Shown one piece after another: positions 12,935 through 29,337 of a stretch of 29,337 nucleotides of DNA. The notes beneath the pieces were generated by a model, which saw only the letters and a list, made by a program, of their open reading frames with translations, was not told the origin of the DNA and did no database searches. Origin of the DNA: a virus (Duplodnaviria; Caudoviricetes). The stretch lies in IMG/VR virus record IMGVR_UViG_3300017735_000067, positions 1 through 29,337 of that record, one strand, 5' to 3'. How positions within the stretch are numbered: the stretch's first letter is position 1; each line of letters starts with the position of its first letter. The translations under genes were made by a program, and so were the position numbers.

Positions 12935-13520
12935 GGGAATCCTCCTCTTCTACTACTTGGGCTTCTATAGCTCCCTCCTTTATTTGCTCTATACGCTTTC
13001 TAGCGGCATTTAGGGTATCTTGGTAGTCCTCCGCTGTGTATATATTCTTTACATCAACCACCTGAGAAGCCTCGCCCCTAGCGGTCATAGCTTGTCTCTG
13101 GGAGTTTGCCTTGGCTATTGATATCTCTTTTAGGTCTCTGAACTCTGGTTCATAGCCACCTTCCAGCTTTACTCTGAGGGCATCAATCATATCTTCTTCT
13201 AGGGATTCTAGGTTAAGATAGCTCCTAGCGGCTAATTGCCCTCCTAGCTCGCGGAAGGAGTTTGTGTGATCCGAGTAGTCCGATAATACAGCTACGACAG
13301 TAGTCCTAGGTATGCTGTGCCTGCGGATCATGTTCGTCTGCGAACAGCCCAGTGCGTGTAGATAAAGTATCTTAGCTACCTTCTCTGGATTGTGCCTAGA
13401 TAGGCTCTTGATCTTGGATGCTTCTTTCTCACGCTGGATAGTCACAATAGCATTAGAGATGCTTTGCATCAACTCGTCCTTCTCGTCACCCTGTTTCAAT
13501 TCTGCAACTGGCTCTTCCAT
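12915..13520 (-). CDS. Putative terminase small subunit
   Basis: 201 aa; HTH-like segment (LGCSQTNMIRRHSIPRTTV), helical core; first gene of the packaging operon. Confidence 0.55.
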   Translation of the reverse strand: MEEPVAELKQGDEKDELMQSISNAIVTIQREKEASKIKSLSRHNPEKVAKILYLHALGCSQTNMIRRHSIPRTTVVAVLSDYSDHTNSFRELGGQLAARSYLNLESLEEDMIDALRVKLEGGYEPEFRDLKEISIAKANSQRQAMTARGEASQVVDVKNIYTAEDYQDTLNAARKRIEQIKEGAIEAQVVEEEDSLGSGDS

Positions 13521-13529
13521 ACCCTATTT

Positions 13530-13620
13530 CATTTTTGCAATAACCCATTGCAATTCTGCAATAACCCATTGCAATTTTGCAACACCTATACCATTATACA
13601 TACATTATATATATAATTAT
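13530..13620 (+). repeat. Three 21-bp-period iteron-like repeats plus AT-rich tract (origin-like copy A)
   Basis: CATTTTTGCAA 13530, CAATTCTGCAA 13551, CAATTTTGCAA 13572, then CACCTATACCATTA and a TA-rich run. Confidence 0.75.
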
Positions 13621-13800: not shown

Positions 13801-14083
13801 ATGTATCCAGATTTCCACTACAAACTGACGTAAGTCGTTGGTATACAGCTACTATGGACACATCTGAGCCTAGCTAACCTAGCTAATCTAGCTAAGTCAT
13901 TGGTTATCAGTTACTTGTGTTACATATGAGGTAGTAAAATGTTTCTCCTTATGGAAATGTATCAAGAATCCCACTACAAACACCCGTATTAGTGGTATCA
14001 CTTTGGGCTAAGTTTCTAGCTAATCTTCTAGCTACCCTTCTAGCTCGTTTCATAAGTCGTTGACTATCAATACTATGGACAAC
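13801..14083. repeat. Repeat-rich non-coding control region (possible genome terminus)
   Basis: 25-bp repeat 13801/13957 (22/25 identical); TAAGTCRTTG motif at 13831, 13893, 14053; CTAGCTAAN x3 at 13870; TTCTAGCT x3 at 12-bp period from 14014; TACTATGGACA at 13850 and 14071. Confidence 0.8.
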
Positions 14084-14125: not shown

Positions 14126-14154
14126 TTGTGCCATGCTGGTATCTGCTTTAAAAT
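14126..14154 (+). promoter_or_regulatory. Sigma70-type early promoter
   Basis: TTGTGC-17 nt-TAAAAT; predicted start near 14161, followed by boxA-like CGTTCTTTTCCA. Confidence 0.55.
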
Positions 14155-14175
14155 GGTGGCTCGTTCTTTTCCAGT

Positions 14176-14432
14176 CTCGCCCAGTAATGAGCCAGACAGA
14201 GTTAGCTAAAGCTAGCTACTTCGCCAGCCAGCGTTACCGCTGAGTAACATTATCCGATATCTCGACATGGAGAGATGGGGATTAGTTGCCAGCCAGCTGG
14301 GTGAGCCAAGCACAATGACTCCATGCAGTTACCGCTCCACTTTGATCATCCCTTGATGTATGTGCCAGCAGACTCAGAGCCAGTGACATCGATCACTGAG
14401 CTAGGTTATAAGTTGCCAGTTGGATCGGCAAC
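14176..14432 (+). ncRNA. Candidate structured leader / small RNA
   Basis: 9-bp long-range helix 14176-84 with 14297-305; hairpins at 14201-16, 14233-48, 14259-76, 14381-98, 14412-32; no convincing ORF. Confidence 0.4.
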
Positions 14433-14439
14433 GAGACGA

Positions 14440-14487
14440 GACCGAAACGCGAAAGCGTCCAGTGCTATCTGCACTGCTGATGAGGTC
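14440..14487 (+). ncRNA. Hammerhead ribozyme HH1 (type II)
   Basis: GACC-GAAA-CGC(gaaa)GCG-TC^-CAGTGC(tatct)GCACTG-CTGATGA-GGTC; full core, three perfect stems, GUC cleavage after 14459. Confidence 0.95.
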
Positions 14488-14526
14488 AGAACACCTCGTA
14501 TCAATAAACCAAATACAAAAATAGAT

Positions 14527-14796
14527 ATGAAAAACAAAAGCGACAACAACACCTACGCAGTCATCACCCGTGAAAGCATCTTCGTCGAAGCTCCATGTGA
14601 GACTACTTACTTCAAGAATCTACTGGATGCAGAAAGATTCATGGCTAGATACTTAGCACGACCAAGAGAAGTCGAGCAGTGCCAGCTGGTCAAAGTAATG
14701 CAGTGGCACGAGCAAGATGAAAACTGCACTGAATACGATGATGCGGTAAGAAGAGTTCAATCTCTTCGCGACCGCAGACCAGTGCATCACTTCTAG
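14527..14796 (+). CDS. Early hypothetical protein (cassette 1, 89 aa)
   Basis: Starts MKNKSDNN at the ATG of the conserved leader; TAG overlaps the first base of HH2. Confidence 0.8.
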   Translation: MKNKSDNNTYAVITRESIFVEAPCETTYFKNLLDAERFMARYLARPREVEQCQLVKVMQWHEQDENCTEYDDAVRRVQSLRDRRPVHHF

Positions 14797-14847
14797 ATCG
14801 AAACACCCTCATGGGTGTCTGACGGTATCTCCGTCACTGACGAGATC
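14796..14847 (+). ncRNA. Hammerhead ribozyme HH2 (type II)
   Basis: GATC-GAAA-CACCC(tcat)GGGTG-TC^-TGACGG(tatct)CCGTCA-CTGACGA-GATC; cleavage after 14819. Confidence 0.95.
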
Positions 14848-14877
14848 AGTATCAATAAACCAAATACAAAAATAGAT

Positions 14878-15270
14878 ATGAAAAATAAATGCGAACCAAC
14901 AATAGATCTCAATTATAAATACAAAGCCACAGAAGCTGAGATACTTCGTATGTGGCTTAGGAATAATAAAGATGTGGATAAGGAAGACTTAGCTAAGGTA
15001 GTTAAAGCAAATGTCGTAGTGCTACATAGGTTAGTTACTTTCTATGATGGCTCACCGAATGCGATTGTTCGTAGATGGCGTAAGCATGGTGACTTCTTAG
15101 TAGCGGAGTATACACCACCAGTCACTCAATCATATGAGGTCACTGCTACCGTTACATTGATAGTGGATGCCACTGATGAACGCGATGCCATGCAGAAAGC
15201 AGACGAAGAGTTTGAGTCCAGAGACTTATGCTGTGAGATGCCATGGGAAGCAAAGCTAGATCATCCATAA
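14878..15270 (+). CDS. Early hypothetical protein (cassette 2, 130 aa)
   Basis: Starts MKNKCEPT at the leader ATG; TAA ends 2 nt before HH3; C-terminal VDATDERDAMQKA motif. Confidence 0.8.
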   Translation: MKNKCEPTIDLNYKYKATEAEILRMWLRNNKDVDKEDLAKVVKANVVVLHRLVTFYDGSPNAIVRRWRKHGDFLVAEYTPPVTQSYEVTATVTLIVDATDERDAMQKADEEFESRDLCCEMPWEAKLDHP

Positions 15271-15272
15271 CA

Positions 15273-15324
15273 GGTCGAAACTCTCTACGGAGAGTCTGGC
15301 GGTATCTCCGTCACTGATGAGACC
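15273..15324 (+). ncRNA. Hammerhead ribozyme HH3 (type II)
   Basis: GGTC-GAAA-CTCTC(tacg)GAGAG-TC^-TGGCGG(tatct)CCGTCA-CTGATGA-GACC; one G-U pair in stem I; cleavage after 15296. Confidence 0.95.
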
Positions 15325-15357
15325 ATCAGTATCAATAATACAAATACAAAAATAGAT

Positions 15358-16674
15358 ATGAATAATAACGACAAACTAAAGACATGGCTCCGCAAGAATC
15401 CTAACAGATCAACGCTGAGTGCAAACGCGACAGACATAGCTTGTGCAGGCAAGCCACAGCTAGAGAAGTGGGTGATCGAATTGGGTGGTGATCCAGAGAT
15501 GATCTACAATACAGAATACACAAAGACATCGGCATCAGCTCCAGTAGCTACACCAGTAGCTAGCACTGGCGTATCGGATGCGGATAGAATCAAGATACTA
15601 CAGGATATGTTCGGTAGTAGTAGTGACAATCTTGATACAGATAAAGTAGAGCAGATCGTGCGATCCGTAGTGGATGCCGAAATCCTACCCACCATCGATC
15701 AACTGAAGGATGATGTTAAAGAGTTGGCTCCGCTAGCTAGCACACTGAAAGAGATCGCTGACATCATGAAGACAACCACATCGTCAAGATTGCCAATAGC
15801 TACGGCAGTAGCCAGCGGTAACAATCCAATGCTGGAGATTCTGCAACCATACTACACTGCTGGCGAAACTTGCTCAGTGCCAGTATGCATCTCTGCTCCA
15901 CCATCCTATGGTAAAAGCTACAGTGCTGAAATCCTTGGCAAGCAATACGAGACATTCGTCCAGCATGGATGCAATGGATCGGAGGATGAGTTTGCATCTC
16001 TGCAAGGTGGCTTCCAGCCAGACGGCAAGTCTGGTGGATGGAAAGTAGTAGACGGAAAGTTAGCACAGGCAGTGCGATCAGCGAGTGAGGGTAACAATAC
16101 GTTATTCTTTTTCGACGAAGCATTCCGAATGCATCCAGAGACCGCTGAAAATCTTCTACAGTTTCTGGCTCCGCAACCAGACGAAGATGGCGATGATGTA
16201 TACCAGCTATACACCAAGCACAGCGATGGCAGTAACCTAGAGTTACTGCAATGCAAGGCAGACAAGTTGCACATCATATGTGCGACCAATCTCTGCGAGG
16301 TCGAACCACCAGAAGCACTGATGTCTCGCTTCTTAATAAAACACGTTCAATACGAAACAAAGATGATTGAACACATCGGTGAATCAGTAGCTAAGAAGTT
16401 TGGCATAGCTAATCCAGAAAACTTAGCGAAGCTATTCGCTAAAGCCATGGGCGAGTCTCGCAAGATGCGAGCCAATGGTCAGCTACTCGTGCCACTTTGC
16501 ATTCGCACACTTAGACGGGGATGCATGAAGGCAACGGATGCCACTGACGAAAGTGTTCTCAAGTGGATCAGAGACGAAGGCATGGATGCCTTGAAGATGT
16601 GGAACTCAGACACTGGTGATGTTACCGAAGACAGTGAGTCTGGTGTTAGGGAACTAGCTAAGATTCTTAGCTAA
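15358..16674 (+). CDS. MoxR/CobS-like AAA+ ATPase
   Basis: Walker A APPSYGKS, Walker B LFFFDE, VDG.L..AV, sensor-1 ATN, ALMSRF arginine finger, sensor-2 IRTL. Confidence 0.88.
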   Translation: MNNNDKLKTWLRKNPNRSTLSANATDIACAGKPQLEKWVIELGGDPEMIYNTEYTKTSASAPVATPVASTGVSDADRIKILQDMFGSSSDNLDTDKVEQIVRSVVDAEILPTIDQLKDDVKELAPLASTLKEIADIMKTTTSSRLPIATAVASGNNPMLEILQPYYTAGETCSVPVCISAPPSYGKSYSAEILGKQYETFVQHGCNGSEDEFASLQGGFQPDGKSGGWKVVDGKLAQAVRSASEGNNTLFFFDEAFRMHPETAENLLQFLAPQPDEDGDDVYQLYTKHSDGSNLELLQCKADKLHIICATNLCEVEPPEALMSRFLIKHVQYETKMIEHIGESVAKKFGIANPENLAKLFAKAMGESRKMRANGQLLVPLCIRTLRRGCMKATDATDESVLKWIRDEGMDALKMWNSDTGDVTEDSESGVRELAKILS

Positions 16675-16702: not shown

Positions 16703-18226
16703 ATGAATATGCTAGATACCATAACTAAAGCGTATCGCTTTTGTAAGCGTAACGTAACCGCTACCCAGAAGGGTGGCGTTCTAACACGAATGAAGATAGC
16801 TACTGGCAGACGATATAAGTTTGATGTCGATGCCAGTGTTAACACTGCAAACTGGTGTTATAACAATCGTCTCAATCGACATGAGATAAAATGCGGAACA
16901 TCATTGGATCGTATCTGTAATGCTGATACAAAGTCATCTCCGAAAAAGATGAAGGAGTTTATCCAGCAGATCATCCGACATGAGACTGAGCATGGCATCC
17001 AGACTGATCGCACTAATGTGGTCGGCACTTGGTGTAAGGATCATGGCATCCCATTCAGATTGTATAATCTGTTTGAAGACTGTCGCATCGAATACAACAG
17101 TGCTATCCGTAAGGATGGCGATGGTGCGTTCCGCTGGGTTAAATACCAAGATGTGGATACCAGCTATAACCTAGCTAGCTCACTACTATGGGCAATCAAG
17201 ATCAATGAAGCTGGTATTAAAAAGTCAGCTAGTGCATATGTGCCAGATTGGACGGGATCAGAGTATATGATCTACGCTGGTAAGAGACGTAAGACTCGTC
17301 TCATCGTGCTGGCTTTTTATCGCAGGATAATAGCTACCACTTGTTCGATGAACCTAATGCCAATCTGTCTTGAGTGGATAGAGTTATTCGGCAAAGAGGT
17401 TCCGCCATCCATGGGCGATGATACCATCAATGGTGAGCTTGATCCCAATTCACCAGAGGGTGAGGAAGTCGATGAGACTTCCCAAGTCGAAGTCGATGAC
17501 ACTAACCCAAACCAAGATAGGCAGAGTAGCTGGTGGGATCAAAAGACAAAGCCAATCAACGATCACCAGATATCAAGGATAGCTAGGGCGATGAATTCCA
17601 TCGTTACCAAAGCTAAGTCCACCAAGAATAAGCTATCCACCATGGGTAGTAAAATCTCAGTGGATCATATCATACAGGGAAGCGAGAGATCGTTTCTAAA
17701 ACGCGGTCGCACGAGAGGTAAGCGTAGAGTAACGCTCATTGTGGATACCAGTGGGTCGATGGAAAACACATGGAATGTTCATGGCGGTAGGGAATTCGTG
17801 TTAGCTTTCAGACAGCTAGCTAGGAAAAACCTAATCGATCTGGACATCCTATTGACTCAAGTCGATTGCACACGGAGTGCGGTATCCAAACGTATCGATA
17901 AAACTGATACAGATGAGTGGATCAACAACCTAGACTGCCAAGGATGTGGCGAGGGTGTTATGCAATGCATCAAACGGTTCCTACCGATGATCAAGAAAAG
18001 CACGACATCGATCATATTCACTGATGCGTATCTAACGGATGATGACATCGATACCCAGTTTTATCGCAACTTGGGTCTCAACATGATCGCATCATACATC
18101 GAACCCAATGACTGGGCGGTAGGTGGTGGTCGCAAAAGGATGGATCAGCACTTCGCCAGAAGTGTCATCGCGACCAACGCTACTGATCTAGCTAGAAGGT
18201 TAATGCGTGAAATCCTCAAGGACTAA
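16703..18226 (+). CDS. CobT-like vWA-domain protein with N-terminal HExxH motif
   Basis: RHETEH and NLFEDCRIE; MIDAS motif VDTSGSM ... IIFTD; adjacent to the AAA+ gene. Confidence 0.85.
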   Translation: MNMLDTITKAYRFCKRNVTATQKGGVLTRMKIATGRRYKFDVDASVNTANWCYNNRLNRHEIKCGTSLDRICNADTKSSPKKMKEFIQQIIRHETEHGIQTDRTNVVGTWCKDHGIPFRLYNLFEDCRIEYNSAIRKDGDGAFRWVKYQDVDTSYNLASSLLWAIKINEAGIKKSASAYVPDWTGSEYMIYAGKRRKTRLIVLAFYRRIIATTCSMNLMPICLEWIELFGKEVPPSMGDDTINGELDPNSPEGEEVDETSQVEVDDTNPNQDRQSSWWDQKTKPINDHQISRIARAMNSIVTKAKSTKNKLSTMGSKISVDHIIQGSERSFLKRGRTRGKRRVTLIVDTSGSMENTWNVHGGREFVLAFRQLARKNLIDLDILLTQVDCTRSAVSKRIDKTDTDEWINNLDCQGCGEGVMQCIKRFLPMIKKSTTSIIFTDAYLTDDDIDTQFYRNLGLNMIASYIEPNDWAVGGGRKRMDQHFARSVIATNATDLARRLMREILKD

Positions 18227-18230
18227 TACG

Positions 18231-18662
18231 ATGATCAGAAACCTAGAAGTCATCCTATACGTAGTCATACTGCTCGCGGCAGTAATCATCAGCGAAGCAC
18301 AAACACCATCGGAGATCGTCACAGCTACCATCATACTGGAAGCTGGTGGCGAATACTCTGAGGGTGCGATGCAAGCGGTATACGAAGTGATCGCCAATCG
18401 ATCAGCTAACCGCCAGCTAGCACTGAGTGAGGTCTGCCTGCAGGCATCCCAGTTTGCTTGCTGGAGCGACAAAGACGTAGCTAGCCAGATAGCTAAAGCC
18501 AAGTCTCACCCTAGATGGGGTGAGGCTTTTGTTATAACCCTGTATCCGAAAACCAACTACACTAACGGAGCAGATCACTACCATGCGGATCATGTCGATC
18601 CCTACTGGAATAAACACATGAAGGTGACCGCCATCATTGGTCGGCACATCTTCTACAAATAG
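18231..18662 (+). CDS. SleB/Hydrolase_2-like cell wall hydrolase
   Basis: N-terminal signal/TM; LEAGGE, VIANR, QFACW, GADHYHA, PYW, IGRHIFY motifs. Confidence 0.88.
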   Translation: MIRNLEVILYVVILLAAVIISEAQTPSEIVTATIILEAGGEYSEGAMQAVYEVIANRSANRQLALSEVCLQASQFACWSDKDVASQIAKAKSHPRWGEAFVITLYPKTNYTNGADHYHADHVDPYWNKHMKVTAIIGRHIFYK

Positions 18663-18940: not shown

Positions 18941-18955
18941 CTAGCTAGCTAGCCA

Positions 18956-18987
18956 AGCTCACACTCTTCGGGGTGTGGGCTTTTTTT
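18956..18987 (+). terminator. Rho-independent terminator ending the early operon
   Basis: AGCTCACACTC-TTCG-GGGTGTGGGCT plus T run; cUUCGg tetraloop. Confidence 0.9.
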
Positions 18988-19177
18988 ATGCCCGCACACA
19001 AAAAATTTCAGGGCGGGAATTTACTATGGACAACCCTCTATCCTAGCTACCCCATCAATTCTAAATCAAAACGACTCCTAGCCCCCATGATCCCCCAAAT
19101 CTTTGTGCATACGCAGGGTAAAAACGACTATGGACAACCCTCGCTCCTATATATATTGAAGTTTTTAAATTAGGTGC

Positions 19178-19206
19178 TTGACACCCTGTTGCATAACTGC
19201 AAACCT
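19178..19206 (+). promoter_or_regulatory. Possible promoter of the replication operon
   Basis: Perfect TTGACA at 19178; weak -10 (TGC-AAACCT) at 17-nt spacing. Confidence 0.4.
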
Positions 19207-19260
19207 ACGCTCATAGATCAGCACGAAGCTATCTAATAAAACATAACAAAAGGAGACAAA

Positions 19261-25513: not shown

Positions 25514-28500
25514 TTAATCCCTGAGCCTAGATAATTTTTCTTCGACCTCTACGCCCTTGCCCCCTTGCCAGTAATAAATCTTTCCAACTAGTGGGAAGTA
25601 TTTAGCACTACGCATTTCGGAGATGGTATTTAAATCCCCAATATCCTTGGTTATGTCATTGACGATACCAAACTGTGGGGGAGCTACGAAACTTATAAGA
25701 GCGTCTCCTACCCCCTGATTTCTAGCTACAACGGCGGTATACTTGGTTACACCGAACATTCTGAGTAGTGTATTCCACATGAAATCCTCCTCGTCTATCT
25801 CTCGGTTGAATAGGATTGCCTTGAGAACATCTGCGGAACCATTAGCTAGAGCCGAAAAGGCAAGTATCCTCACCATATTTACGGAAGCACCCGCTATTCT
25901 TTTGGGGTCTTTATTGACGATGCCCTCAGTTAGCTCGACGTAAGTTTTTTCCCGCAGGAAATTAAACTGTTTAATAGTGTAGGATTTTAAGCTGTATAGG
26001 ATACGCAGATTTGGGTTCGCGGCATAATTTTCTGGCATTTCTGTCAGAGATATGGGAGCTACGTCAGCTAGCTCATTATATAAAGCCTCCACGACTAGGT
26101 CGCTTTTTACTCCATTCTTGAGGTCTGCGATTGTTTTGTAAGCGTCGTCCCCCTGAGTTCTTTTGAGTCTAGCTAGCGTCTTCTTATACTTGTTGGTATT
26201 CTGACCAGCCTTAGCTCCCCGCGTAAGAACCTTGTATGCGGCATTGATATTTGTATTCTTAGCTAGCCTATCCATGGCTGTCAGTCCAGTTAACCTGAAG
26301 ACTGTCCGCACGCTGTTCGCAAACATACCTGCACCCTGCTCGTTTTCGATGGATACCATGTCCTTAGCTAGACCCAAGTCCTCAATGGTAAATTCTTTTC
26401 TGCCCATTACGGACTCAATCGTTGGAATTAATCCATTCTGAACCATTGTGAAGTAGAAATCACCTAGCTGAGTAAGAGCAGACCCTGGATTTCCCATGGT
26501 AGCTAGGTAGCCAGCGTTCTTTACACCCTTTACAAATCCATACTGACGACCGTGTTGACCGAATCTAGCGGCAACTGCTCCCTGAATAACCTCTATCTGG
26601 TCTTGGCGTAGTCGTCCCTGTTTAGCTAGACCATCCATTACTTCGCCCAGCCTGCCAGAAACCGCCTCTGCTCCCTGAGTTTTTCCAGATGCCGCATCCC
26701 CAATTAACTTCTTGGTCTCTATGGCGTTAACCATTTTTTCAAGGTAGCTATCAAGAGCTAGCTCTGGTGAAGCGTAGTAACCCAACTGGTCGAGTCCAAT
26801 AAGGGAGATGCGTCGTTCTTTAATATTGCTAGGATCGTTTACTCCTCCGCGATATAGCTTTGACCTAGCTAGCTTTTCATACATCATCTGGCGTTCTGTT
26901 CCCGAAAGCGTTTGACCAGTCATGTTTTCATACCTGCGTATCTCCTGATCAACAATGCCAGTGGGCATACCAAAGGACTTCTTTAGACCCTCTAAGTCCT
27001 GCACGAGCCTAGGGAAGTAGTTGTCAATGAAGTTGGAGTCCAGTCCCAGCGTTTGATACTCTTCCTTAATTGTATTTAGAATGGTTCTAACTTGCCTGTA
27101 GTTGTCTACCATTCCGTATTGCTGGAGTATAGCCATGCCCTCGTCGGACAATCCTCGGATCATTTCCTCCTCTGTAGCTATCTGCTCTGCACTGCGGTCG
27201 AATCGACCCGTGTTTTTCTGATATCGTATATCTGATTCGCTTGAGCTATACGCCCCAGTGTTAGCTGTAGCGGACTTTATCATGTTGGGGGCAAACACAG
27301 CTAGCGTTTCGTGTTCTGCGTCTGAACCCTTTGCAGATGCCTCCTCGGACAAGAGCATTGTGTCATAGCCCTTGGTCTTCAAGAAGTCCACCATGGGCTT
27401 GTTTTCATAAACAGTCCAGTTGCCAACCCTGTATCTACCTTGACGTATTAATTCGTTGGTTGCGTCCACCTCGCTTTGTATTCCAGTTTTTTGGGCTTGT
27501 TCTAAAACAAAGTCCTCCGCCATTTGGAAATCAACTCTGGGATCAAATATTTTTTTAGAATTTAAATACACTGGGTATATGGCTGTATCAATAACAGAAT
27601 CGCTCATCCTAGATTTTCTGGGATGCTTCTCATACATTTCTTCGTAGTATGGACTTACACCTCCAGCTGTAGTGTCTTCTTCTCTTTGGACACGATTCCA
27701 GTCTACGGAACGCTCCCACGCCTTATCCTCCTCGCGTTCTCTGGCTCTTCTTTCTTCCCTTTGCTTGATTCCAGCTGGGCTTTTCCTGTCTCGTATTCCA
27801 CCAGTTCCCCTGACCCAGTTTTCTGCAAACTCTGGGTTAGTGCTAAAGAAAATAAGACCCTCTGACCTAGCTGATTTAAATGAAGTTATGTCGTCCTGCT
27901 TGCTTCCATGATAAAGAACCATTGCCTCGCCATCCTCATGCTTTAGCACCCCATCCCCAAACCACTTTCTAAATGCTTGAGTTCCACGAACCTTCTGGTT
28001 CTTTCGGATTCTCTTAGCACCCCTCGCCATTTGTTCTGCGGTAGCTGGCTTTTTATTTCTTTCTATGGCATCCGCTACTTGCTCTGGGGTGGGTGTTCTA
28101 AATTGTTTTCCCTTAAAGGTCATTGCACCAGTGGCTCCCCCAGTCAGCTTAGAAGTATTTAAACCATATCCCTTAGCTACGGATTCCGCTGTTTCCATGT
28201 CTGGTATTGTAACTACACCTTTCTTGGTCGCGTCTCCTATCTTCTTTGCGGTTCCTTTTTTTCCATAAAGATATTCCTCATATGATTGACGTTTTAGCTC
28301 ATTTAGAAAGTCCGTGTTCATTACGTCTTCTAAATTAACTTTGATGTCTGGAGTTCCCAAAAATTCACCAGCTATACCATACTCATAAGTGTTGTGTATT
28401 CCCGCTGTTTTTTCAGCAGTATAATTTCCGTTGGGTTTAAATGCCGCGTATATATCACGCAAACCAAATTCATTGTGCGTTAAATGTGCATCAACAAGAT

Positions 28501-29337
28501 CAGCGTTGCTGGGCATGAGTTCCTCTAAAATTTTTCTAACGGAATTTGAATTCGTTGAATTCAATCGTTTCTTCATGCTTTCCATGAAGATTCTTTTGAC
28601 GGTTCCATCCGAATTATTTATAACTGTATCGGGGTCAGAATACTGATTGAGAAATTTGTTTGCCATTGCTCTATCTAAGCTCTGAGCATCTTTTTTAGCT
28701 AGGATAGTTTTTGCAAACTTTTCTACACTTCCGTATTTTGATATAATATTATCGTAGAATATTGTAGCTGGAACCTTGTTGAAATAGTGCATTGTTTCTG
28801 GGTCTCCAGAAAAAATCATAACAACATCGGACTTACTTGCGGCTTGAACCGCCCCAGCCTGAGTGCTTGACCACACATAATCCTTGGCTTTGCCTTTTTT
28901 GTTTTTAGCAAAACCCAAACCAGCATCCAAGAAGTATTTCTTTCCGCTTACTGGGCTAGTATAATCGCCAATCCCCATCTGATCAGCACCCCAAAAAGTT
29001 ACAGTTAAATTGTTAGTAACAATATCGTCCAGTAGTGCCAGCATATCAAAGGAATCACTGCTATCTACGTTAGAATTCTTTCTGGGCTTTAGATCAAAGT
29101 CCACCCTAGGAGCCTGAGTTAAATCCTTTATCTGTAGCTTAGAACCCCTTATGGGTGCTGATATCGGACCCCCTATGCCATCCTTGGTGTCCCTGCTAAC
29201 CCCTTCGGTAAGAGCCTCTGTTTCCCCAGAAAAACGGGCAAAGGCATTCAACTGTTCAATAACCTCGGCATCCGTTTCCGCTTGCTTAAATGCACCCTGC
29301 ATTCCCAGTGCTTGCATTACTTGGTTAATCCACACCT
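25514..29337 (-). CDS. Giant virion/ejection (polyvalent) protein with ADP-ribosyltransferase-like domain; 5' end outside the window
   Basis: More than 1270 aa open to the edge; FRKWFGD...YHGS...FFS...A...YPVYL...GYD...VF.PN.IKS segment; helical C-terminal region. Confidence 0.75.
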   Translation of the reverse strand, partial: VWINQVMQALGMQGAFKQAETDAEVIEQLNAFARFSGETEALTEGVSRDTKDGIGGPISAPIRGSKLQIKDLTQAPRVDFDLKPRKNSNVDSSDSFDMLALLDDIVTNNLTVTFWGADQMGIGDYTSPVSGKKYFLDAGLGFAKNKKGKAKDYVWSSTQAGAVQAASKSDVVMIFSGDPETMHYFNKVPATIFYDNIISKYGSVEKFAKTILAKKDAQSLDRAMANKFLNQYSDPDTVINNSDGTVKRIFMESMKKRLNSTNSNSVRKILEELMPSNADLVDAHLTHNEFGLRDIYAAFKPNGNYTAEKTAGIHNTYEYGIAGEFLGTPDIKVNLEDVMNTDFLNELKRQSYEEYLYGKKGTAKKIGDATKKGVVTIPDMETAESVAKGYGLNTSKLTGGATGAMTFKGKQFRTPTPEQVADAIERNKKPATAEQMARGAKRIRKNQKVRGTQAFRKWFGDGVLKHEDGEAMVLYHGSKQDDITSFKSARSEGLIFFSTNPEFAENWVRGTGGIRDRKSPAGIKQREERRAREREEDKAWERSVDWNRVQREEDTTAGGVSPYYEEMYEKHPRKSRMSDSVIDTAIYPVYLNSKKIFDPRVDFQMAEDFVLEQAQKTGIQSEVDATNELIRQGRYRVGNWTVYENKPMVDFLKTKGYDTMLLSEEASAKGSDAEHETLAVFAPNMIKSATANTGAYSSSESDIRYQKNTGRFDRSAEQIATEEEMIRGLSDEGMAILQQYGMVDNYRQVRTILNTIKEEYQTLGLDSNFIDNYFPRLVQDLEGLKKSFGMPTGIVDQEIRRYENMTGQTLSGTERQMMYEKLARSKLYRGGVNDPSNIKERRISLIGLDQLGYYASPELALDSYLEKMVNAIETKKLIGDAASGKTQGAEAVSGRLGEVMDGLAKQGRLRQDQIEVIQGAVAARFGQHGRQYGFVKGVKNAGYLATMGNPGSALTQLGDFYFTMVQNGLIPTIESVMGRKEFTIEDLGLAKDMVSIENEQGAGMFANSVRTVFRLTGLTAMDRLAKNTNINAAYKVLTRGAKAGQNTNKYKKTLARLKRTQGDDAYKTIADLKNGVKSDLVVEALYNELADVAPISLTEMPENYAANPNLRILYSLKSYTIKQFNFLREKTYVELTEGIVNKDPKRIAGASVNMVRILAFSALANGSADVLKAILFNREIDEEDFMWNTLLRMFGVTKYTAVVARNQGVGDALISFVAPPQFGIVNDITKDIGDLNTISEMRSAKYFPLVGKIYYWQGGKGVEVEEKLSRLRD

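Follow-up and report, generated by a model that had tools for sequence, protein, structure and literature searches.

The tailed-phage record IMGVR_UViG_3300017735_000067 (29,337 nt, analyzed at its full length and hereafter called the window; completeness estimate 76%) carries three compact type II hammerhead ribozymes, HH1 to HH3, each standing ahead of a gene in one plus-strand operon. We propose that these hammerheads probably cut the operon transcript and that the units of gene, ribozyme and leader would act as natural insulators, a reading drawn from sequence and predicted structure. A single predicted transcript of ~4.8 kb would yield an RNA of ~300 nt, two single-gene mRNAs of 360 and 477 nt and a block of ~3.7 kb led by an AAA ATPase gene; the 360- and 477-nt sizes, put forward in an earlier note made from the letters of the window, agree with the predicted cut sites. 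A type II cut, made 3' of the NUH triplet, would leave a 2',3'-cyclic phosphate and the stem III hairpin at the 3' end of the upstream piece, and the downstream piece would begin with a 5'-OH, stem I and a tail hairpin, followed by an A-rich leader. This geometry would give each mRNA the same 5' start whatever gene precedes it, and small accessory genes could be swapped without altering the expression of their neighbors. After the cut, the tail hairpin would block re-ligation and supply a second 5' hairpin. 5'-OH ends resist RNase E-type decay.

We searched both strands of the whole window with a descriptor for all three hammerhead permutations (types I–III), using 300 dinucleotide shuffles as a control. 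Exactly three matches were found, all of type II and all on the plus strand, against a chance level of 0.003 matches per shuffle for each type. The core CUGANGA, the GAAA and the NUH triplet are in register in all three copies, loops close stems I and III and stem II is open, as expected of the type II permutation. Stem I has 6 bp, stem II 4 bp and stem III 3, 5 and 5 bp beyond the A–U pair. ViennaRNA returned the hammerhead three-way junction as the minimum-energy structure of each element folded alone. In HH1, A14439 and U14466 occupy the positions of the inferred contact of stem I with stem II. The descriptor and the isolated folds bear out the claim of the earlier note that three complete type II hammerheads are present, and its stem lengths and pairings hold for every copy. 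Its placement of the ribozymes at or within 2 nt of the upstream stop codon is likewise correct for HH2 and HH3: HH2 stem II begins with the G of the TAG stop codon of open reading frame (ORF) 1, and ORF2 ends 2 nt before HH3. Rfam agreed in part. A scan of the whole window at E≤1 gave no hammerhead match, and a 1-kb scan matched HH2 alone to RF02276 Hammerhead_II, at 27.6 bits (gathering score, 37), with HH1 and HH3 unlisted. The compact subtype thus scores under the Rfam threshold in the window, and copies of this kind can be missed in standard annotation.

The ribozymes are retained in relatives of the window. Using the AAA protein as a query, we fetched 26 viral and 33 metagenome loci and defined a clade of 38 loci, which comprises the window, 20 of the 26 viral and 17 of the 33 metagenome loci, some of them near-identical; the excluded loci were the window's own record, apparent contig repeats, or loci with less than ~90 nt upstream or a cut AAA start. 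A type II hammerhead lies directly before the AAA gene in 38/38 loci, at one to three hammerheads per locus, and is kept even when no accessory gene is present. Between the ribozymes lie 0–2 small cassette genes from 8 unrelated families, so that several ribozymes flank single, variable genes in a phage operon, as in clustered prophage hammerheads. Sequence comparison reveals gain, loss and exchange of units of gene, ribozyme and leader among the relatives; locus L001, for instance, is without ORF1 and HH2, and its join falls inside the repeated leader. Family F cassettes (L270, L282) encode a ribozyme-flanked, membrane-like protein of ~92 amino acids that is hydrophobic and glycine-rich.

Among the 45 distinct clade copies, CUGANGA is kept in all, and the triplets are GUC (30), GUA (14) and GUU (1). 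The loss of core bases in relatives that the earlier note had named as a possible refutation was thus not found. The copies fall into two subtypes, 32 compact and 13 pseudoknot-type, the latter having a short or absent stem II and the loop I GGCU:AGCC tail pairing of the published consensus. The two subtypes swap in the same slots, which argues that cutting activity, not sequence, is what is kept.

To place the compact subtype among viral contigs, we ran a pattern scan over 5 of 64 parts of the collection; extrapolation to the total gives an estimated 1,900 or so matching viral stretches, chance matches included. An earlier pattern scan had yielded few true hammerheads (24 matches in 13 of 123 sequences). 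All loci collected together hold 168 distinct compact copies that pass the stem filter, a count that gives no share of the subtype among all type II hammerheads because the pattern fixed stem I length at 17 nt. A U at position 1.7, seven bases after the cut, is present in 167 of these 168 copies, and an A just before stem II likewise in 167. In the 158 copies from pattern-scan loci, where neither letter was part of the pattern, 157 have the U and 157 have the A. In the part of PMC9217987 covered here, a U 7 nt after the cut that pairs with an A beside stem II is the trans-Hoogsteen contact of highly active hammerheads; we infer that the window copies and the other compact copies would form this U1.7 contact in three dimensions. 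Base-pair types in stems I and II vary across the 168 copies, G–U pairs included, which documents variety and not frequency, since the copies were selected for pairing. Loop I:tail pseudoknots of at least 4 pairs occur at chance level among the 158 copies, with 8 observed against 9.0 expected within 12 nt and 39 against 35.9 within 45 nt.

The compact copies also keep a characteristic position relative to genes. An upstream ORF stops within −6 to 0 of stem II in 90 of the 117 copies with enough flank, whereas six equal control windows hold 2–10, and the contact A is inside the stop codon in 39/117. Downstream, 157 of 164 copies have a long ORF whose start codon is no more than 90 nt away, mostly at 10–40 nt. 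Two or more compact copies are present in 42/133 loci, overlapping loci being counted apart. Long runs of compact hammerheads, up to 9 per fetched locus, were seen on unrelated viral contigs (L056, L128, L151–L153, L173, L188–L190). On this sequence comparison, a compact, pseudoknot-free subtype that usually sits right at the upstream stop codon is an addition to the published picture. A pairing of loop I (UAUCU) with AGAUA at the next start codon is possible in all three window copies and was rejected, because AGAUA occurs in 9 of the 13 pseudoknot-type leaders, which do not have this loop, and is missing from 12 of the 28 leaders that do, because the start of the VWA-like gene shares the leader ending although no ribozyme stands there, and because loop I:tail pairing is at chance in the compact class.

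Each window ribozyme is followed by a tail that could pair with its own core. Besides the HH1 alternative hairpin, there is a weak anti-core hairpin in HH2, reaching 14849, and a CUGAUG:CAUCAG hairpin in HH3, reaching 15329, which is also a DNA inverted repeat. Such a hairpin is possible in 32/32 compact clade copies, which are related sequences, by way of three sequence solutions. Outside the clade, 21 of 159 copies have RUCAG within the next 5 nt, where 2.3 would be expected; the purine of this tail agrees with core position 7 in 19 of these 21 (C:G 11, U:A 8, other 2; Fisher p 4e-4, uncorrected for kinship). The second route, in which stem II ends in UC and is followed by AG, is taken by 19/32 versus 22/127 copies. 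The overall excess of tail hairpins outside the clade is modest (74 observed, 62.4 expected, of 159), and about three quarters of the non-clade copies are without such tails. Most likely, on these predicted pairings, the tail hairpin forms after the cut and locks the cut product.

Upstream of HH1, where the earlier note had placed a plain leader RNA, we find instead a conserved, structured non-coding region. Its GUUCUUU start stands 223–343 nt before the GAAA of the first ribozyme in 32 of the 38 clade loci, the other 6 being cut short, and the length of the 5' RNA ranges from 242 to 363 nt. Many 1-nt indels relative to L284 mark it as non-coding; a reading frame from the ATG at 14323 through HH1 into ORF1 was rejected, as it is kept in the nearest relatives only and meets the 1-nt indels in L284. 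No gene stands before HH1, whose likely role is to provide the 5' RNA with a defined 3' end.

We aligned nine 5' RNAs, the window's closest structural group among 29 distinct leaders. RNAalifold returned 31 pairs, 15 of which show two-sided changes; in the apical stem of the loop 1 hairpin, such changes affect 4/4 pairs. The predicted loop–loop helix is paired in 9/9 sequences with one compensatory pair (CAUGG:CCAUG, replaced by CAUGA:UCAUG in two). When this helix is included, 16 of 36 pairs have two-sided changes and 98.4% of cells are paired, with 0/500 shuffles as high; this covariation is support rather than proof, since the structure was drawn from the same alignment and the lineages are few. 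A second lineage has a shorter pseudoknot; of its 10 aligned rows, 9 carry it, in three compensatory versions, and the tenth is gapped. A standard k-turn pattern (C helix, 3-nt bulge, tandem G.A and A.G, NC helix, as defined in the part of PMC8191799 covered) is present, with covarying helices, in 16 of the 29 distinct leaders versus 2.3% of shuffles, and is absent from the window's own 5' RNA. A covarying GC-N/pentaloop hairpin occurs in 20/29 leaders, the window's not among them. The 5' RNA of the window folds better than its shuffles, which does not hold for every lineage: fold z over the 29 leaders ranges from −4.4 to +1.7.

A covariance model built from the nine sequences, R1, matched the window at 14220–14373, as expected of a training member, and at the same position it matched five non-training clade loci, at 27–35 bits. 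It gave one strong match among 74 other hammerhead loci, L074, which comes from the contig of clade locus L276. Rfam at E≤1 returned no family for the 5' RNA in the window or 8 relatives. We found no description of it in the literature searched, a search whose scope, with supplementary motif lists and most subscription journals outside it, makes this absence no proof of novelty. A dedicated 5' RNA pattern scan was set aside: of its 17 stretches, 5 belong to the clade and 12, without hammerhead or GUUCUUU, were taken as chance. Loop 1 as a CsrA-type GGA site was likewise set aside; it would be a single site and reads GAA in L267 and L303. A helix joining the ends of the 5' RNA was rejected as a family feature; it reaches −5.3 kcal/mol in the window's lineage and elsewhere is mostly no better than internal 14-mers. 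In the window's lineage, 14160–14169 can pair with 14431–14440, which would mask the contact A along with the base that opens HH1 stem II, an arrangement not common to most other lineages.

Several observations weigh against the picture of an operon that is headed by a structured RNA and divided by its hammerheads. P(stem II), at 0.96, 0.43 and 0.96 for the three window copies, falls to 0.00–0.21 when 10–20 nt of 3' tail are included, by nearest-neighbor energies that omit tertiary contacts. The tails compete with the active fold, so complete constitutive cutting is not a given and cleavage of the RNAs may be partial. Neither a hammerhead nor an R1 match is present in the syntenic phage C75C1, which makes the layout dispensable in the wider phage group. 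Among 25 loci fetched by a neighboring DNA motif, 17 have a hammerhead, 4 are too short and 4 have none despite more than 1 kb of downstream sequence. The covariation of the 5' RNA comes from nine related sequences, or about three lineages at 80% identity; the 5' RNA as a whole is mosaic, with 7 lineages at about 60% mutual identity, and a large part of the biggest leader lineage has a fold z close to zero or positive. Finally, the window promoter, with 8/12 consensus matches, is below the threshold of the scan tool and was not listed by it.

These points bear on how the alternatives are weighed. The ribozymes might be conditional switches gated by translation, cutting mainly when the upstream gene is untranslated: while the 3' half is being synthesized, a ribosome terminating at the upstream stop codon would sit over the GAAA and the stem II 5' strand, after which the tail hairpin would hold the core inactive. 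The stop codons within −6 to 0 of stem II (90/117), the contact A within them (39/117), the RUCAG excess (21/159 vs 2.3) with its purine matched to core position 7, the UC–AG route (19/32 vs 22/127) and the hairpin in all 32 compact clade copies fit such gating. We nevertheless consider it unlikely, as genome compaction would also yield tight spacing, HH1 carries a tail yet has no conserved upstream gene, some three quarters of the non-clade copies are without these tails and the total excess is small, pseudoknot-type copies occupy the same slots, and a post-cleavage lock explains the same pairing. Gating also enters a joint reading that we hold only tentatively, in which HH1 would be the maturation nuclease of a ~300-nt phage RNA that acts in trans on the host, while the downstream hammerheads would be gated by the stop codon and the anti-core hairpin. 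As part of this joint reading, the 5' RNA would be the first product of the operon, folded through the CAUGG kissing loop (with a k-turn in many relatives); its role might be, for example, that of a protein decoy or a self-assembling scaffold, and the operon would be cut only where ribosomes are absent. A competing view, somewhat easier to credit though still short of even chances, is that the 5' region is a structured 5' untranslated region or regulatory leader discarded after the HH1 cut, with no job of its own. Its modules are mosaic and lineage-specific with no match outside the clade, and no clade-wide helix joins its ends; but its length is held at 242–363 nt, compensatory changes keep the loop-to-downstream pairing, the k-turn and pentaloop modules covary, and a leader once cut off cannot act in cis on translation.

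Cutting could also serve to lower expression, short and unequal half-lives giving a brief pulse of accessory genes much as glmS cleavage leads to decay. The parts of PMC6765202 covered report degradation after glmS cleavage and a proposal that phage-linked ribozymes give differing stabilities after processing. We think this improbable, because hairpins would stand on both new ends, because the conserved AAA gene is preceded by a ribozyme in 38/38 loci even without an accessory gene, and because RiboJ-type ends raised output in the cases reported in the part of PMC9964548 covered. Least probable, in our judgment, is a view in which RNA cleavage is incidental and the elements serve chiefly as DNA repeats for the shuffling of cassettes, or are hitch-hiking relics. 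The leader is a 55-nt direct repeat within which the L001 deletion joins, and the HH3 tail hairpin doubles as a DNA inverted repeat; however, the stems vary freely yet stay paired, G–U pairs included, the cores are intact in 45/45 copies, and two subtypes of different sequence interchange, which recombination substrates would not need to do. The reading we favor remains that of an operon cut by its hammerheads into insulated units.

Features of the hammerhead operon in the window (positions count from the first letter of the window)
Feature	Position	Strand	Remark
Predicted sigma-70-type promoter (TTGTGC, 17 nt, TAAAAT)	14126–14154	+	8/12 consensus matches
Structured non-coding 5' RNA, ~297 nt	14163–14459	+	starts GUUCUUU, ends at predicted HH1 cut; fold z −3.65
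Loop 1 (GACAUGGA) of long covarying hairpin	14264–14271	+	predicted pairing with loop 2
Loop 2 (CCAUGC)	14321–14326	+	predicted kissing partner of loop 1
Stem with internal loop	14338–14364	+	k-turn pattern in relatives; absent from the lineage of the window
HH1, compact type II hammerhead	14440–14487	+	cut predicted after 14459
HH1 alternative hairpin	14480–14498	+	tail ACCUCG pairs with core end and stem II 3' strand
A-rich leader repeat ending AGAUAUG, without Shine-Dalgarno; repeat family D1	14494–14529	+	recurs at 14845 and 15325
ORF1, 89 aa, without a family match; cassette family C	14527–14796	+	absent from L001
HH2, compact type II hammerhead	14796–14847	+	cut predicted after 14819; overlaps ORF1 stop codon
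ORF2, 130 aa, no family; cassette family D	14878–15270	+	
HH3, compact type II hammerhead	15273–15324	+	cut predicted after 15296
AAA ATPase (PF00004, E 1.9e-5)	15358–16674	+	first gene of fixed downstream block
VWA-like gene	16703–18226	+	
Cell-wall hydrolase	18207–18662	+	
Intrinsic-terminator-like hairpin and U run	18955–18989	+	predicted operon end

The minus strand of the window carries the terminase and major capsid genes, after which the plus strand carries the hammerhead operon, in the order of two small unknown genes, AAA ATPase, VWA-like gene, cell-wall hydrolase and replication genes. Transcription would start near 14161–14163. At the promoter position, 20 distinct clade upstream regions score a mean of 8.2/12, compared with 5.5 (maximum 6.2) in 200 shuffles. 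The labels 'early' and 'first transcript' follow from gene order and the predicted promoter only and are to be taken as provisional. A second, weaker terminator-like hairpin lies within the hydrolase gene (18501–18528). The A-rich leader is a 55-nt direct repeat in the window, where an A-rich leader that lacks a Shine-Dalgarno motif precedes most starts. Searches of Pfam and PHROG gave no family match for ORF1 or ORF2, and those of the Atlas no usable match. The AAA protein has no relative in the prokaryote genomes or annotated phages searched, and the closest capsid match is phage C75C1, at 37.5%.

Outside the operon, a 26-nt motif of inverted character (TTGCA-N4/5-TGCAA) is repeated at 13482–13561 and 19177–19202, with one copy overlying a second rightward promoter and three ahead of the leftward gene. 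It is conserved in relatives, and its copies look like operator sites of one regulator. A 16-nt motif (ACTATGGACAAC core) at 13850, 14071, 19022 and 19126, upstream of both rightward promoters and also found in relatives, is a possible activator or repressor site. Loci L335, L338, L345 and L349 have the conserved leftward-promoter motif without a following leader RNA or hammerhead, L338 being a second copy on the same contig as L341. Relatives carry, behind the second rightward promoter, a mini-tmRNA of 65–67 nt that consists of the tRNA-like domain only (L276:7946–8011, L003:4679–4744 and L257:8684–8750; RF00023, 53–59 bits). It was also found by pattern in L259, L260, L262 and L270, for a total of 7/38 loci, many loci being too short to reach this place, and ARAGORN misses these copies. 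The matching place in the window (~19215–19235) has a short hairpin only and no tmRNA match. Pairing between the 5' RNA and the relatives' mini-tmRNA found no support, the longest match being 7 nt in 3/3 checked. At 25514–29335 on the minus strand, a large polyvalent-type phage protein, cut by the window end, carries ART-PolyVal ADP-ribosyltransferase domains (PF18760, E 2e-13).

The operon layout and the idea of processing have been known since 2011, and the window array exemplifies a known kind well. The parts of Perreault 2011 (PMC3088659) covered here describe clustered hammerheads that flank single prophage genes, propose processing into single-gene mRNAs, and report that three tandem arrays were cleaved in vitro and one in E. 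coli; triple arrays occur in Clostridium scindens, Azorhizobium caulinodans and Agrobacterium tumefaciens. Those arrays share with the window several hammerheads per operon, one per gene or short block, and variable genes. The proposal of the earlier note that the transcript is cut into gene-sized pieces thus gains from the anatomy, from the core kept in 45/45 clade copies and from a direct precedent (PMC3088659), and loses its claim to novelty. The type II consensus given in PMC3088659, as far as covered, has a pseudoknot between loop I and the 3' tail, whereas the window copies do not. The words 'stop codon' have 0 occurrences in its main text. Neither the anti-core tail nor a released structured 5' RNA, as predicted in the window, was found in the parts covered of PMC3088659, whose supplementary alignments may hold such copies.

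With the Rfam family RF02276, the window copies share the order stem II–GAAA–stem III–GUC–stem I–CUGANGA–stem II, and HH2 aligns over the whole model; they differ in their 4-bp stem II, 5-nt loop I and missing AGCC tail. The consensus pairing of loop GGCU with an AGCC tail is present in the second, pseudoknot-type subtype of the clade. The early mRNA of phage T7 is a polycistron cut by RNase III, a host enzyme that leaves 5' phosphates, and its likeness to the window is the conversion of an early polycistron into gene-sized mRNAs. The PeSL of T4-type phages are repeated intergenic regulatory cassettes tied to gene shuffling, which are promoter cassettes and not ribozymes. RAGATH-type motifs are orphan structured RNAs near ribozyme-associated genes. 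The 5' RNA is like them in being a structured non-coding RNA from a phage region rich in ribozymes, many of whose members have a k-turn, and unlike them in that a hammerhead, which would define the 3' end, adjoins it directly. A k-turn is present in RAGATH-18 according to the part of PMC8191799 covered.

The nearest functional likeness is RiboJ, an sTRSV hammerhead with a hairpin that standardizes the 5' end independently of upstream sequence, as described in the part of PMC9964548 covered. It is a likeness and not membership: RiboJ is an engineered element whose additional hairpin lies apart from the core, whereas in the window the second hairpin is built from the core and the unit is repeated between natural genes. 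Ribozymes that drive translation initiation in fungal and plant RNA viruses, described in the part of PMC13725137 covered, belong to a different setting. PMC12192606 and PMC5737381, as far as covered, contribute nothing specific. In the parts covered of Weinberg 2019 (PMC6765202) and Eckert 2023 (PMC10085705), the purpose of self-cleaving ribozymes in bacterial and phage genomes is still open. Natural controls for that question exist within the clade, where one slot can take either of two subtypes, the 0–2 genes are interchangeable, and tail and core covary. Compact copies also form a ready set of natural insulator parts of ~50 nt, and the 5' RNA, if stable, would be a new phage non-coding RNA with a ribozyme-made 3' end. 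In summary, the exchange of ribozymes within one clade, the structured 5' RNA and a compact subtype whose covarying tail is predicted to block its own core make the window array a variant within the known kind.

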